Shown here piece after piece: positions 55,645 through 63,200 of a stretch of DNA of 64,000 nucleotides. The stretch lies in the NCBI RefSeq assembly GCF_003334255.1, contig NZ_QOWU01000009.1. One strand, 5' to 3'. A program made the translations under genes and the position numbers. The notes under the pieces are model-generated. The model did no database searches and was not told the DNA's origin. It saw nothing but the letters and a program-made list of their open reading frames with translations. The DNA comes from Escherichia coli (lineage in GTDB: Bacteria; Pseudomonadota; Gammaproteobacteria; Enterobacterales; Enterobacteriaceae). Each line of letters opens with the position of its first letter. Position 1 is the stretch's first letter.

Positions 55645-55890
55645 TCAGGGATGAATGATATTCGGCTGAAATTCCGGACAGCCGTACGCGTAACCGTTCC
55701 GGTCACAGACGGATGGCCAGATGCCATTGCCTGTACTCAGTCTGCACAGACTGAGTTCTCCGGGACGGTAAAGCAGACGGGTACACCAGGCGCACAGGTC
55801 ATCATCAGAAATGGAACGACATCCCGGCAGCGCCTCCGGGGCGTCGGGTGATACGGGTGCCTGAATCACGCCTTCAGGGATATGTTTCAT
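55645..55890 (-). CDS. Small Cys-rich protein, DUF905-like (YkfF/YfjW slot)
   Basis: About 81 aa from ATG at 55890, overlapping the DUF932 stop by 1 nt (TGATG), suggesting translational coupling. Family assignment is by position and size only. Confidence 0.45.
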   Translation of the reverse strand: MKHIPEGVIQAPVSPDAPEALPGCRSISDDDLCAWCTRLLYRPGELSLCRLSTGNGIWPSVCDRNGYAYGCPEFQPNIIHP

Positions 55891-56708
55891 CAGCGCATGC
55901 TCTCCAGCAGCGTTTCTGCCATCACCCACAATGCGCGGTTGAGCTTAATATCGGTGTCGATGCTGTGAATGGCACGGGTATGGATACGTTTTCCTTTAGC
56001 GCTGCGACCTGAAATTCCGCCTTTCAGCATATTCTCCTGAATGGTCTGATAAGCACTCCACAGGTCCTTACCGTAATCTTCCCGGCGTCGTGGCGTCAGA
56101 ATGTCGGCGGTGGTGACGGGCTGATGTTCGTCACCATAACGGTAAGTCAGTGCCGCCTGTGCCAGCGCCTGGCGTGCCGGTGGCGGCAGGACCAGCGACT
56201 GCATGGCATCACGTTTCTCTTCAATCCGGTCAAAAACCTCCACCACCTCGTAAGCCCCTTCAATGACTCTGTCCACCACATTTCCCCGGTGTGGAACACG
56301 CACTTCCCCCAGAGACTGACCACAGACGCACCCGTTCTGGCAGACGAACCGGAAGTAACCCGGCAGCATCTGGTAGCTGGAGGTACCGTCATGGGAGTTG
56401 AGCAGAATGATTTCAGGGACATGTTCTCCGTTTATCTCTCCGGCCCGCCGCAGACGCAGCATGTGTTTGGTGTATTCCCGGCGGCCCGGGTCGCGCACAC
56501 GGGTCTGGCAGGCGAAAAAGGGCTGGAAGCCTTCCCGCTGCAGACTTTCCAGTACGGTGATGGTGGGGATGTACGTATAGTTCTGGCTTCGGGACGTGTG
56601 TTTCTCTTCCCCGAAAATCCCCGGCACATGGTGCATCAGCTCTTCATGTGTCAGCGGACGGTCACGGCGTATCTGGTTCGCATAACCAAAACGACTGACT
56701 AATTGCAT
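55890..56708 (-). CDS. DUF932 protein (YfjQ/YafZ family)
   Basis: 272 aa, MQLVSRFGYANQIRRDRPLTHEELMHHVPGIFGEEKHTSRSQNYTYIPT..., in the conserved CP4-type position. Confidence 0.65.
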   Translation of the reverse strand: MQLVSRFGYANQIRRDRPLTHEELMHHVPGIFGEEKHTSRSQNYTYIPTITVLESLQREGFQPFFACQTRVRDPGRREYTKHMLRLRRAGEINGEHVPEIILLNSHDGTSSYQMLPGYFRFVCQNGCVCGQSLGEVRVPHRGNVVDRVIEGAYEVVEVFDRIEEKRDAMQSLVLPPPARQALAQAALTYRYGDEHQPVTTADILTPRRREDYGKDLWSAYQTIQENMLKGGISGRSAKGKRIHTRAIHSIDTDIKLNRALWVMAETLLESMR

Positions 56709-57118
56709 ACTTTGCTCCTTATCGGTGGTTAAGATTTACTGGTGCAACAAATGAAAAAAGCCGCGTCTCCCGGAGAAGACGCGGCCTGATGGATGAAATC
56801 AATGAAGTTTATTGTCTGAGAAGCCCTCCACTGGCGAGCCACGCATTAAGCTGTTTTCCGGCATCAGCTTCAGAGTTCCGGCAGCGTCAGCGTCGCTGAC
56901 CTTCCGCGTTGCGGATAACCCGACGGAAATGCATTCCCGGGTCATCCTGGATAAACACATTGCGGTAAGCGGTTATGACAGCAACCGCCTGCCCGTATGA
57001 GAAAGATCCTTCAGCCAGGACATACTCTGTGTGTAACCCGGCATATCTGGTTTCTCCTGATAAATAGCCTCTGCCATACGTTGTGGCAGAGGCTGAAGCA
57101 TGAAACTGACTTCAGGGA

Positions 57119-57574
57119 TCAGTTAACATTTTTTCCGGAAACGGTAATCAGCAGTGGATGGTAGTCCTGGGGATCGAAAACCGATAACGGCAGACTGACA
57201 CGATGGCCGTTACTTTCTTCAGTTGCTTTAATGATTTCGGTTGTGGCGACATTTTCCACGCACTCCGTTTCCAGAAATGCGTCTGTGGTTCGCGTGGCAT
57301 TACTGTCACCAAAGGCTTCCGTTTCCATTTTTCTGGTCACCAGCGTCTGACCATATTTGTCTTTGAGTTGCAGAGTGATGGTGAGGGGGCCAAATCCTTC
57401 ATCGTTTCCGCCATTATCCAGTCGGAACTGGTAAGCACAAATATTTCCCGGGAGCCATATCGTATCTGTATTGCGTATACTGATGTAACGTTGATCCTGT
57501 GCCCGGAGTGGGGCAGACCACGTTAACCCCAGAATGACGCCAGTAATAATGCAGGTTTTGAACAGGTGAATCAT
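57119..57574 (-). CDS. Secreted/periplasmic hypothetical protein, 151 aa (YfjT-like)
   Basis: N-terminal signal peptide MIHLFKTCIITGVILGLTWSAPLRAQ; 75 bp downstream of the YeeR-like gene. Confidence 0.5.
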   Translation of the reverse strand: MIHLFKTCIITGVILGLTWSAPLRAQDQRYISIRNTDTIWLPGNICAYQFRLDNGGNDEGFGPLTITLQLKDKYGQTLVTRKMETEAFGDSNATRTTDAFLETECVENVATTEIIKATEESNGHRVSLPLSVFDPQDYHPLLITVSGKNVN

Positions 57575-57649: not shown

Positions 57650-60172
57650 TTATGCCGGGAGCTCCGGGGGGAATGCTTCTTCCAGCCGGTTAACCATCTT
57701 GCCGAGATGGGATGCATCATATTCCATGACGGGGCGTTGCCTGATGATACTGACCACCAGTGGTTTGATTAACATATTGGTCGCGGCCCGTTGTTGTATA
57801 CCGGCGGCGAAAATGATCTCCAGAGCATTCTGATCGATAACACGGGCCAGATTCGCGTTCAGATTTTCAATCTCATGTCCGGTCAGCAGGAAACTGCCGG
57901 CAAGCCATGTCACCTGCTCCTGAATCATTGCCAGAATTTTGACGCGATCTTCTTCAACCAGCGCTCCGGCAATTTTTCCTGATACAGTGGAGGCAATCAT
58001 TCCCCCCAGAACACCGCCAACCACACGCCCTGTCAGTGCACCAAATGGTCCCAGTGGACTGAACAATATCCCGCCCGCCACTGACCCGACAGCACCACCT
58101 GCCACACCGGAAGATGCCACGGCAAGATTCCTGATGAACTGCGCACCGGAGATCCGTCCCCGCAACATTTTGATCATGTCAGGGCCGGTTGTGACAGCTA
58201 CCAGTGCCAGAGATGTCACCAGCGTACCCTTCATCACTTTGTTCAGGGCACTGATATTTCCTGCACCGGTCCCCTTCTGAAGCGCCTGCCGGACAGTCGG
58301 GCTGGCCGTCGAAAAATCAATATGCTTCAGCATACCCTGAACAACAGTGAGCCGGTGAAGTTGCTGGGTTGTAACGTAGACAGCCAGTGTGCGGGTGAAG
58401 GTTTTTCCTGCCTGGACAGCAGCTGTCTGCAGGGCAGCATCGCGATCGCCGGTGCTGAGCCAGAAGACCGATGCCGTCAGGGCAAAACTGATCCCTCCGG
58501 CCGCCAGACTGACAACCGACCCCTCGGCAATATCATAAGTGACCGATTCGATGGTCCCGAACCGGGTGATATTACGGGCCTGGGTATAAGTCAGATGTCC
58601 CCGACGAATCAGCCGGGACGCTTCTGCGGGATCGGTTACACCGGGTACTTTACCTTCGCGGATCTTATTCTTCATGGTTTCCACAGCGCCGGCATACTGA
58701 TCACGGGGGACTTCCAGTTGCATGGGACCATGATTTCCCATGTAACGATACTGTCCGTTTTGTCCGTCGAATGCCGCACCGACGCTACGGGCTGCAGTTG
58801 AACAATATTTCGTCTGGATTTCTGTTCCGCTGACCAGTCTGTCTGCTCCATTTCTGGCATTATTATCACCGAGGATCCGTGCGTTTTTCAGACGGACTCT
58901 GTCGACAATATGGTTTCCCCGTTCAGCGGCAAACCCATGTCCCTGCCCTCCGGAAGCAAACATTTTCTCATTTGTACTCCAGGTTTCCGGCAGTTTCATG
59001 AGAATCAGACCATTCGCCGTTGCATCGGAAATAAAACCGGTGTAAGAACGTTCATAAATGTCCTGACACAGTGTTTCTGTTTCGCGACAAAGAGAGGAGC
59101 AGTACCATTCCGGATCCGGCTTATGATTTTCCGGGGCATGATGTACTTCTGTCAGCCCGCAGGAGGCACAGATACGAAGCTCATCCACGTGGTGGAATGA
59201 TACAAAACGGCGGCCTTCTGAAAAGGGGTACCAGTCACCGCCGTCCAGGCAACGATCGAGAAAATCGTCATTCGCTTCCGGTGATAAATTCAGGCGGTTC
59301 CGGAAGAGGGTTTTCAGTTCATCAGGGGTAAATGACAGGCTCTCTCTCAGCTTTTCGTTGAAACCCGCCATGTTTCTTTCATACCAGGCATTGTCCAGTA
59401 GCCAGTTTCCGTCTGCCAGTTCAAATTCCCTCAGTTCTCCCCGGGAAATCCGTTGAGAAATGAGTGTCAGCCAGATGCGCTCCGTCAGCGTTTCAGGAAG
59501 GCTGTAATCGTTTTGCAAACTGCTCAGCCATGATTTACTGTTGAGCACCGGTTGTTCTTCCAGTGTCTGGCTGATGGCACTGGTCAGTCTTTTCAGCGCC
59601 TGGATCTGGCTGGCCGCCCATAGCAGCGTCACTAATGCAGCCAGCCAGTACAACAACCCGCCCCACCACATCAGTGAGGGTGAAATATCGAACTGCAATG
59701 CGATCAATGGTGCGTATGCAGAACACGCCATAAGGAAAAAAGCAGTATAAAAACAGCAGTAATACCCGTTAATTTCCTTGCTGATATCTTCAGGTGTGAG
59801 CCCGTTCTGCTGAATGGTTCTTATCTGCACGGGAAGAGCCAGCAGACCAGCGGCGAGAGCGGTGGTCAGAATAAATTTTACAGAGTCAAAAGTATGAGCC
59901 TCCAGTGCGATATGTTTACCATCAAGTCCCCACATGAAGCTGATGATCATTCCGGCAATCGTCAGAAATACGCCTGCCAGCCAGCGAATATGGAATAACC
60001 GGGTTATGCGTTCAGTGATATAGCCAGCCAGTAAAGCCGGACCGAACAGACACAGCAATACGAATCCTGCCAGCGCAGACGCCGTGCTGGTTAATGCTCT
60101 GAACAAAAGGCGAAGAATGGCAAATCCTGCGATCAGCAGAATCAGCGCGCCGACTATCTGTAACATAGTCAC
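57650..60172 (-). CDS. Full-length YeeR-like inner membrane protein, 840 aa
   Basis: N-terminal about 200 aa with multiple hydrophobic helices, a central region with a CxxC...CxxxC cluster (CASCGLTEVHH...CSSLC), and a C-terminal glycine-zipper-like hydrophobic region; N-terminus resembles K-12 YeeR as I recall it. Confidence 0.6.
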   Translation of the reverse strand: MTMLQIVGALILLIAGFAILRLLFRALTSTASALAGFVLLCLFGPALLAGYITERITRLFHIRWLAGVFLTIAGMIISFMWGLDGKHIALEAHTFDSVKFILTTALAAGLLALPVQIRTIQQNGLTPEDISKEINGYYCCFYTAFFLMACSAYAPLIALQFDISPSLMWWGGLLYWLAALVTLLWAASQIQALKRLTSAISQTLEEQPVLNSKSWLSSLQNDYSLPETLTERIWLTLISQRISRGELREFELADGNWLLDNAWYERNMAGFNEKLRESLSFTPDELKTLFRNRLNLSPEANDDFLDRCLDGGDWYPFSEGRRFVSFHHVDELRICASCGLTEVHHAPENHKPDPEWYCSSLCRETETLCQDIYERSYTGFISDATANGLILMKLPETWSTNEKMFASGGQGHGFAAERGNHIVDRVRLKNARILGDNNARNGADRLVSGTEIQTKYCSTAARSVGAAFDGQNGQYRYMGNHGPMQLEVPRDQYAGAVETMKNKIREGKVPGVTDPAEASRLIRRGHLTYTQARNITRFGTIESVTYDIAEGSVVSLAAGGISFALTASVFWLSTGDRDAALQTAAVQAGKTFTRTLAVYVTTQQLHRLTVVQGMLKHIDFSTASPTVRQALQKGTGAGNISALNKVMKGTLVTSLALVAVTTGPDMIKMLRGRISGAQFIRNLAVASSGVAGGAVGSVAGGILFSPLGPFGALTGRVVGGVLGGMIASTVSGKIAGALVEEDRVKILAMIQEQVTWLAGSFLLTGHEIENLNANLARVIDQNALEIIFAAGIQQRAATNMLIKPLVVSIIRQRPVMEYDASHLGKMVNRLEEAFPPELPA

Positions 60173-60286: not shown

Positions 60287-63200
60287 TCAGAAGGTCACAT
60301 TCAGCGTGGCCTGACTGTTATAACCTTCAGCGCTGCTGCCGTTGATGCTGTGGGCATAACCGGCCTGAACGCCCAGGGTGATATTTTCCCGGACACGGGC
60401 TTCCAGTCCGGCCTGCAGATCCAGTGAAGTGCCATTCTGTGAGGGAGAGAACGTCATCCCGCTGCCTGCGGTGGAGGTCCCCACACGCATATCACCCCGG
60501 GAGCTGAAGGTGCGGATAACGGAAGGCTGTACCCACCAGTTCACCGGCAGTTCACGCACACTGTGTTTTGCACTGTCACGCAGGGGGGCACGGGATGAGG
60601 TGCCTTCACCAAAGGTCATATCGTTGTGGCTGCCCAGACGGAAGCCGGCACGCACATGTTGTGCACTGCCATGCCCGAACCTCACATAACCGGCGTTATC
60701 CTGGCCGTCATCCAGGGAGAGTCCCTGCCAGGTGTACTGCAGTTGTGGCTCCAGCATCAGGTTGTCAGTGATACTGAAGGGCAGACCGGTTTCCAGTGAG
60801 CCCAGCCAGCCCCAGCCCCGGACGCGGAAGTCGTTATTGTCCGATGACGCTTTCATGCTGTGGCGGGTTCCCTGTGCCACTATGTCAGCCCACAGGCCGG
60901 AGGAGGTGTGTGTCAGGTTCATATATCCGCCCAGGCTGCCGGCATCATCCCGGACCGTGCCGGCACGGGAGCCGTCATCATCCTTAACATCAACGGAAGA
61001 ATGGCCTGCAGCACCATATATCCCTGCGGTCACAGACATACCGGCAACCTCTGTTCTCAGCAGGTCACCCTCCAGGCGGACGAAGCCATAGCTGCCGCTG
61101 CTTTCCGGCGTGGCCCCACGGGCAATACCGCCGTTGTTATCGTGACCGAGATGGCCGCCCTGAATGCTGAGACGGACGCTGTTATTTTCACCGTTTACAC
61201 CGGTCTGATGGCTGCGTGAGCCTGCCAGAATCCGGTCATAGTCCATTGCCTGTGTCAGCATGGAGGCATACAGGGGGACTTCTGCACGATAAGCATTTTC
61301 ACTGCGCAGATACCAGCTCTCATCACTGTCCCGGTTGAGGGAGTAGTTAAAGGCACCGGCCTGCAGCCTGTTCCCCTGGACAAAGGCCCCTTCCTCCGTG
61401 GTGGCACCGTTAATGGCTTCCACCACCTGAATACCCTTACCGCTGGTCGCCAGCCCCGACGCACTGTTGCCAGCGTTCACCAGGTTCAGGATGGTTTTTC
61501 CGGTTGCCCTGCCACCGTCAATGACCAGTCTGTCAGCATTGTTCTGTGCCATATCCGGGCGTACACGCAGGCTGATGGTGCCATTCTGTCCGTTCAGGTT
61601 TTTCACTTTCAGGGTTGCCGGTACGAACTTCCCTGTGCGGGCGGAGGTGAAATGAATCTGTCCGGCATGGCTGAGGTCATCCACCACCGACTGAACCGTG
61701 GCGTTATCGGGGATATTCCAGGTGGCACCGGAGGCGAGAGTGACATTCGTGGGGGCAATGGCACCGTTCAGCACAGTGCTGCCGGTCAGCTTCAGGGCTG
61801 TACCGCGCTGAGCAATGACATCCGTGGTGACGGTACTGTCGTTCAGCGTCAGCGTGCCTTCATTCAGGTTGACGGCTTTCTGGGTGAGTGTGGTGTTGCT
61901 GACAGTGAGTGTGCCACTTCCTGATTTTTCCACGCTGCCGTTACCGGTGAGAGAACCTCCCTGCAGGAGTGCATCGCCTTCACGGATGGTCAGGGTATCG
62001 TTGTTCACCGTCTTCCCGGAAAGGGTAAGTATGGCACCGTTATTCAGCGTGGTGGTGCCCGCCAGTGTGCCGCCCCTGGCGGTGAACAGTCCGCCATTTA
62101 CCGTGGTATCCGTGGCCGTATCACCGGCGTTCAGCGTGAATGAACTGCCTTTTTCCAGCATCAGGGCATCCGCCTGACCGCCTCCGATACTGAATGCCTT
62201 TCCGTCGCTCCGGGTACCACTGACAGCGGCACCGGAATCGGCCAGCAGTACACCGCCATTTCCCATGGATACGGTGGTGGCGGTGCCACCGTTGCGGACA
62301 TCCAGCGTTCCGCCATCATCCACGCGGGTATTAGTGGCTGTGTGTCCGGTCAGCACATCCAGGCGTCCGCCATTTTCCAGTACGACATTATCAGCTTTAC
62401 CCTCCACAACAGAGAATGCTCCCAGGCGGTTTATGCCGGTAACGGTTGCAGCCGTACTGGTAACCAGTGCGCCGCCCTGCTTCAGGGTGACATTCGTGGC
62501 TGTACCACCGGCGTCCACCTGCAGTCTGCCCTTCTGATTAACGGTGGTATTCCCGGCCACCCCCCCGTTTTTGACAATCTGCCAGCCGTCACTGTTTACA
62601 ACAGTGCCAGACGCCGTACCGCCGTTGTGCACATACTGGTACCCCCCATTCAGCGTGGTATCCAGTGCGTGACCATGTACAGTCTGGTCGCCGCCGGCAT
62701 AAACCACAGTGGTATTTGCCGTTCCTTCAGCAGCCACAATCTGACGACCATTTTTATTGATGGTGGTGCGTACGGCATCTCCGTAGACGGTCTGCCCGGT
62801 ATCACCATTTTCCGCATCCGGTCCCCCTTCCGCGCCGGTATTCACAACCGTGTCGGTTGCCACTGCGCCGGATTTGATGGCCTGCCAGCCCTTCTCATTA
62901 ATGACGGTACCCGTTGCAATCCCGTCTTCATGTACCCACTGCTCACCGCCGTTCAGAGTGGTGTTCACTGCCTGCCCCTGAAGGCTCTGTCCGCCTCCGG
63001 CACTGATAACCGTGTCTGAAACGCTTCCTCCGGCATTCACTCTCTGAAGACCACCACCGGTGACAGTAGTGTTGTTGGCGGTACCGCCATTTTGTATCCA
63101 TTGGCCGCCGGTATTGGCCTCGTTATCCGGCCCATACTCCAGCCCGGTACTGATGGTCATTCCGTTGGCCGTACCGAAGACAATCTGGTTGTCATGATTT

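Follow-up and report, generated by a model that had tools for sequence, protein, structure and literature searches.

In the window, by which we mean the whole 64,000-nucleotide stretch of Escherichia coli DNA that was analysed, 410 bp (positions 56709 to 57118) interrupt an island of closely spaced genes. What is this DNA? The original prediction had called it a non-coding gap and had proposed three kinds of content: an internal promoter, a small RNA or what is left of a deleted gene. Our analysis points to a gene remnant of a particular kind: almost certainly, the gap consists of a recently inactivated DUF905 (YkfF-family) gene, oriented like the other genes of the island, and of the signals that flank it.

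Layout of the locus

According to the ORF list every gene around the gap is encoded on the minus strand. The main neighbours are the following:

60287-63562, minus strand: agn43 (ORF list)
57650-60172, minus strand: YeeR-like gene, 840 aa (ORF list)
57119-57574, minus strand: irmA, IrmA-family secreted protein, 151 aa (ORF list; 'IrmA family protein' in RefSeq at the homologous position)
55890-56708, minus strand: DUF932 domain gene, 272 aa, next to the gap on its downstream side (ORF list and RefSeq annotation)

Beyond the DUF932 gene the minus strand carries a small ORF, followed by antirestriction, RadC/JAB and DUF987 genes (ORF list). The limits given for the gap are exact: the irmA ORF stops at 57119, the DUF932 ORF starts at 56708, and the longest ORF between them has 62 aa. 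The spacing of 0-90 bp ascribed to the other island genes is roughly right (from overlap to about 90 bp), with 114 bp between agn43 and the YeeR-like gene.

Of 5,426 complete E. coli genomes searched with megablast, 4,211 contained the gap DNA, which occurred at about 10,800 places in all. The number of places per genome had a median of 2 and a maximum of 14; nearly all were chromosomal and 7 were on plasmids. Many places per genome are found because the island belongs to a multi-copy, CP4-like family.

The small ORF between the DUF932 and antirestriction genes (55645-55929, minus strand) is Cys-rich. It has 81 aa if read from the ATG at 55890, which overlaps the DUF932 stop codon as ATGA, and 94 aa from an upstream GTG. 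AR_0017 has no such annotated ORF, and there 54 bp separate DUF932 from the antirestriction gene; the islands are mosaic at this point.

The gap had been described as containing a single ORF, but four are listed:

56812-57000, plus strand: 62-aa TTG-initiated shadow ORF, antisense to the DUF905 frame (ORF list)
56799-56960, minus strand: 53-aa ORF (ORF list)
56973-57101, minus strand: 42-aa ORF (ORF list)
56997-57164, plus strand: 55-aa ORF (ORF list)

The first of these had been judged spurious, and the comparison with other copies bears this out: it is a mere shadow of the DUF905 frame on the opposite strand. Eight close copies keep all 62 aa open, as a real small gene would, but the ORF starts with TTG, runs opposite to every neighbouring gene, is exactly antisense to the DUF905 frame, shrinks to 28-51 aa in the diverged copies L003, L004 and L013, and was never annotated in the RefSeq loci examined. 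We give virtually no credence to its being a gene. The two minus-strand ORFs are out-of-frame pieces of the broken DUF905 gene, made by its lesions.

The DUF905 gene and its lesions

The DUF905 gene, its ribosome binding site (RBS) and its two lesions have these positions:

56809-57044, minus strand: DUF905 (PF06006, YkfF-family) pseudogene (tblastn, Pfam, PDB 2HJJ, RefSeq annotation)
57054-57058, minus strand: AGGAG, Shine-Dalgarno sequence of the DUF905 gene (read from the sequence; aligns with the RBS of intact alleles)
57029-57034, minus strand: lesion 1, ACACAC instead of the ACAC of intact alleles, +2 bp, (AC)2 to (AC)3 (alignments and translations)
56887-56889, minus strand: lesion 2, TGG (Trp52) to TGA, nonsense (alignments and tblastn)

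Six-frame translation of the window revealed DUF905 family sequence in one minus-strand frame, broken by a stop. In tblastn searches the intact H105 protein matched the window with 72 identities in 74 positions and an in-frame stop (E 3e-46), and the YkfF core matched the raw window with an E value of 3e-15. When both lesions were mended, the translation matched positions 2-68 of the 70-position Pfam model PF06006 (60.3 bits, E 1.9e-16) and, with phmmer, YkfF (PDB 2HJJ; E 3.4e-15, residues 8-74 against 6-72). It also matched one PHROG of unknown function. The NCBIfam and PADLOC libraries had no family for DUF905, and no function for DUF905/ykfF was reported in the literature searched. The three marks of family membership, a Pfam profile match, homology to YkfF and an intact family member at the orthologous position, were all found.

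The ancestral coding sequence extends from the ATG at 57044-57042 to the TAA at 56811-56809, and comprises 236 nt in the window versus 234 nt in intact alleles. The AGGAG sequence is kept 9 nt upstream of the retained ATG. Although RBS and start codon are thus retained, the window has no uninterrupted DUF905 ORF of about 70-80 aa. Lesion 1 moves the frame after codon 4, and the retained ATG now gives a 23-aa peptide ending at the stop codon 56975-56973. On account of this +2 frameshift and of the TGA at codon 52 the window copy was filed as a DUF905 pseudogene. The term 'non-coding' is correct in the sense that the gap lacks an intact ORF, but not as a description of its DNA, which is DUF905 coding sequence with a frameshift and a premature stop.

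In a 13-sequence alignment the coding sequence of the window differed from the intact H105 allele by the two lesions and one codon 2 substitution, and was otherwise equal. A single substitution besides the lesions indicates that the inactivation is young. The distribution of the alleles was assessed with 70-nt exact queries against 5,426 RefSeq complete genomes. The AC-insertion allele had exact matches in 640 records, and the H105-type TGG allele in 498. The TGA allele was found with window-type flanks in 25 records and with flanks of the CFT073/Nissle 1917 type in 138.

Comparison with homologous islands located a gene at the position of the gap and settled the remnant reading. Five sampled genomes (AVS0285, H105, MS6193, JNE120393 and strain 405) carry an intact 234-nt DUF905 coding sequence between irmA and DUF932. 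The H105 allele (WP_000902034.1) and the WP_001119729.1 alleles of AVS0285, MS6193 and JNE120393 occupy the same position between irmA and DUF932 as the window copy; unlike the latter, they encode the full 77 aa. The predicted 'deleted gene remnant' was therefore essentially right: a remnant is present, since an intact 77-aa DUF905 gene stands at this position elsewhere, but the window copy was inactivated by point lesions rather than deleted.

In AVS0285, 78 bp separate the intact gene (77 aa, WP_001119729.1) from irmA and 99 bp separate it from DUF932, and H105, MS6193, JNE120393 and strain 405 show the same arrangement. The intact order is irmA, hairpin, RBS, 77-aa DUF905 gene, strong intrinsic terminator and DUF932; with spacers of about 78 and 99 bp, such an island has no unusual gap. 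In the window the two lesions, (AC)2 to (AC)3 after codon 4 and TGG to TGA at codon 52, abolish the DUF905 frame, and without this frame the 410 bp look empty to a reading based on ORFs.

Six of the 11 sampled loci that still carry DUF905 had a broken copy, in a sample biased towards window-like copies. The E597 copy combines the AC insertion with a 1-bp deletion, CE2050 has a 22-bp deletion, and EBJ003 has the 22-bp deletion and the AC insertion. In O157 ATCC 43889 everything except the last ~55 nt of DUF905 was replaced. The lesions seen in chromosomal-island DUF905 genes thus include AC insertion, nonsense codon, 1-bp deletion, 22-bp deletion and 5' replacement. Such frequent and independent inactivation is a hint that an element already resident in the chromosome can do without the gene, and dispensability after residence would fit a role of the early-entry, leading-region type. 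Among the intact alleles dN/dS was ~0.5, a value calculated from 3-15 differences that does not establish purifying selection.

At the homologous position RefSeq uses the label 'DUF905 family protein' for three kinds of entry: intact genes, fragments and frameshifted pseudogenes. A fragment of 29 or 43 aa is labelled in AR_0017, CFT073 and AHB7, and a frameshifted pseudogene in E597, CE2050 and EBJ003. Thus, the RefSeq/PGAP labelling of broken DUF905 copies is inconsistent, some being given as short proteins and others as frameshifted pseudogenes. Broken copies annotated as proteins occupy L001:3208-3297, L005:1679-1810 and L008:577-666.

Could a shortened DUF905 product, such as that of the 29-aa PGAP CDS (56976-56887), still be made and be functional? 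Such products have RefSeq records: WP_112031555.1 (29 aa), WP_032196594.1 (43 aa, CFT073) and WP_225385657.1 (29 aa). However, the 29-aa PGAP call, which was made in the near-identical DNA of AR_0017, relies on ATA, a non-canonical start, no ATG, GTG or TTG yields at least 30 aa in its frame, no RBS is visible, and the fragment covers less than 40% of the 70-position domain. We regard a functional short product as highly improbable; the fragment records look as if homology had driven the annotation of a broken gene.

Hairpins, leader and possible regulatory roles

Three further elements flank the pseudogene:

57067-57093, minus strand: irmA-proximal hairpin (folding dG -20.7 kcal/mol, z -4.5 versus shuffles)
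56750-56787, minus strand: DUF905 intrinsic terminator (terminator scan; folding dG -24.5 kcal/mol, z -6.7)
56709-56749, minus strand: DUF932 leader, with RBS AAGGAG at 56720-56715 and ATG at 56708-56706 (read from the sequence)

The pseudogene, the two hairpins and the leader account for nearly all of the 410 bp.

The irmA-proximal hairpin stands directly after the irmA stop codon and is common to all irmA-linked copies. It has a GC-rich stem of 10 bp (GCCUCUGCCA/UGGCAGAGGC) and a 7-nt loop, and is followed by UAUUUAUC. The hairpin probably serves the irmA operon as terminator, its U-tract being weak in the window allele; the consensus terminator scan made no call at it. The five sampled lineages with intact DUF905 all have an extra TTTT after the irmA hairpin (GGC TTTT TATTTA), a better U-tract. 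The window (57059-57066) and all five other sampled AC-insertion copies read GGC TATTTA there.

The DUF905 terminator has the form of a Rho-independent terminator: between 56787 and 56758 it has a 13-bp stem with 8 GC pairs and a 4-nt loop, followed by U6. The distance from the ancestral stop codon to the terminator is 21 nt, and that from the terminator to the DUF932 start codon about 42 nt. The terminator is kept in 12 of 12 aligned homologous copies, and the sole change in the stem, C to U, turns a G-C into a G-U pair.

Between the DUF905 stop and the DUF932 ATG the mean pairwise identity was 95%, compared with 85-91% for the DUF905 and 92-97% for the DUF932 coding sequence. On the simplest reading of these alignments the stretch would belong to the DUF932 module, with recombination breakpoints inside DUF905. 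The O157:H7 ATCC 43889 island (L006:2501-2653) keeps the last ~55 nt of DUF905, the terminator and the DUF932 leader. Upstream, in place of irmA and the 5' part of DUF905, it has unrelated genes, which comprise two hypotheticals, an RdcB-family gene and one for a patatin-like phospholipase. Such a replacement implies that a recombination breakpoint fell inside DUF905.

In K-12 the DUF932 genes yafZ and yfjQ (L014:6007-6097 and L015:8575-8665) are also preceded by a GC-rich hairpin, which is followed by TTTATTTGTTTT and an RBS. The gene upstream of yafZ/yfjQ is a GTPase gene (ykfA/yfjP), and the hairpin is present all the same. Hairpins just before DUF932 seem to recur among these islands, and the arrangement of terminator-like hairpin and leader is therefore not peculiar to this gap.

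With the gene inactivated, ribosomes would still initiate at the retained RBS and ATG on any transcript that passes the irmA hairpin, and would produce the 23-aa out-of-frame peptide. Such a transcript would then either stop at the DUF905 terminator or continue into DUF932. The window copy would not be expected to give a functional DUF905 protein.

With a strong terminator so close to the DUF932 start (about 42 nt upstream), the downstream genes need either read-through or a promoter of their own. The published operon, agn43-yeeR-irmA with irmA last (PMC4807369), also counts in favour of an internal promoter in the gap, which would drive the block of DUF932, antirestriction, RadC and toxin-antitoxin (TA) genes. 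This would be an added role, compatible with the pseudogene. The sigma-70 consensus scan, a weak test that covers the sigma-70 consensus only, detected no site on the minus strand between 56400 and 57700, and the sole plus-strand site lies outside the gap. Moreover, there are only 74 nt between the irmA stop and the DUF905 ATG, mostly filled by the hairpin and the RBS, and in the ~40 nt from the U-tract of the terminator to the DUF932 RBS we saw no acceptable -35/-10 pair by eye. The predicted internal promoter thus failed to appear in the scan, and we consider it unlikely.

For the predicted small RNA there was neither an Rfam match nor any excess structure beyond the two hairpins, and conservation between the pseudogene and the DUF932 start was no higher than that of the DUF932 gene. 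Rfam 15 was scanned with the segment 55500-58500 at E <= 10, and no match came near its gathering score. The best scores were 13-17 bits (gathering scores 38-66, E 2.3-9.5) and belonged to terminator-hairpin look-alikes or eukaryotic families. Folding of the whole gap gave z -4.9 on the minus and z -4.1 on the plus strand, whereas the central 236-nt coding part folded no better than shuffles (z -1.4). Excess structure in the gap was rejected, the two hairpins (z -4.5 and -6.7) explaining the whole-gap values fully.

A more specific proposal concerns the 3' end of DUF905 with the terminator and possibly the leader, which could be a functional 3'-UTR-type sRNA or a cis-acting attenuator, the element rather than the protein being what is retained. 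It can draw on the O157 copy, where these parts were kept and the remaining DUF905 was lost, and on the stop-to-ATG stretch, the best conserved segment of the gap. In addition, the GC hairpin with its U6 tail resembles the usual 3' end of Hfq-type sRNAs. Against it, the stretch is conserved like the adjacent DUF932 coding sequence and travels with it, and its 95% identity, being at the DUF932 level, was rejected as evidence for a separate element. A 165-nt stretch folded with z -1.8, which the terminator alone explains, the consensus scan found no promoter for the candidate, and Rfam was silent. Esr41, an O-island sRNA that was compared, was rejected for this locus, as it maps between z1181 and z1182.

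An sRNA or attenuator of this kind is very unlikely in our estimate. The same slim chance applies to its acting as an attenuator or 3'-derived sRNA that gates the DUF932/antirestriction/RadC/TA block. If it did, the loss of DUF905 translation (premature stop ~165 nt before the ancestral stop) would alter read-through or Rho polarity into the DUF932 block. More generally, the gap DNA may have gained or kept a secondary role, e.g. as a weak promoter or a processed 3' RNA.

Once the inactivated DUF905 gene is recognised, the irmA-DUF932 spacing is normal, and the island map loses a spurious 'unusual intergenic region'. Apart from correct annotation, and from flagging the inconsistency in RefSeq, the result has little importance.

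DUF905 relatives in K-12 and on plasmids

Both the family of this feature and its state, that of a pseudogene, are known; it is an ordinary case that public annotation already labels. K-12 has one intact DUF905 gene (ykfF) and one broken copy (ypjI). YkfF, encoded in the CP4-6 prophage (PDB 2HJJ), belongs to the same family and is 43% identical over 67 residues to the conceptual translation of the window copy. The island of ykfF resembles that of the window in having DUF932, antirestriction, RadC/JAB, DUF987 and CbtA/CbeA-type TA genes, and ykfF, too, has a terminator-like hairpin just before the RBS of the next gene. The two differ in state and position: ykfF, with an intact frame of 79 aa, comes after DUF932 and has ykfB and the antirestriction gene yafX as neighbours, whereas the window copy is broken and precedes DUF932.

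DUF905 genes also occur on conjugative plasmids, where ykfF is found near psiB/psiA (bioRxiv 10.1101/2025.05.22.655438; 10.1101/2022.07.06.498992). This leading-region ykfF, in the ssi3 operon with a parB-like gene, psiB and psiA, is of the same Pfam family as the window copy. It is plasmid-borne and lies downstream of a single-strand initiation element, whereas in the window the 74 nt upstream of the gene hold a simple hairpin. The Frpo (F) and ssi (ColIb) elements are imperfect hairpins of ~200-300 nt with promoter hexamers in the stem. Folding of the gap did not find a long structure of the Frpo/ssi type, its only strong structures being the two hairpins of 27-30 nt. The presence of DUF905 near psiB/psiA in plasmid leading regions would fit an island block whose composition itself resembles a leading region.

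As the direct precedent we regard ypjI of the K-12 CP4-57 prophage, an annotated pseudogene and, like the window feature, a frameshifted DUF905 gene in a CP4-type island. Its frames read ...NIEDDQGIHVRLIVRDAEGRMV / WRAWNFEPDAGEGFNRYI... (L015:15546-15817). Another K-12 gene, ypjJ, was rejected as a DUF905 gene, as it is DUF987. Compared with the window copy, ypjI is located upstream of the antirestriction gene lfgA/yfjX, carries other lesions and has lost the N-terminal part.
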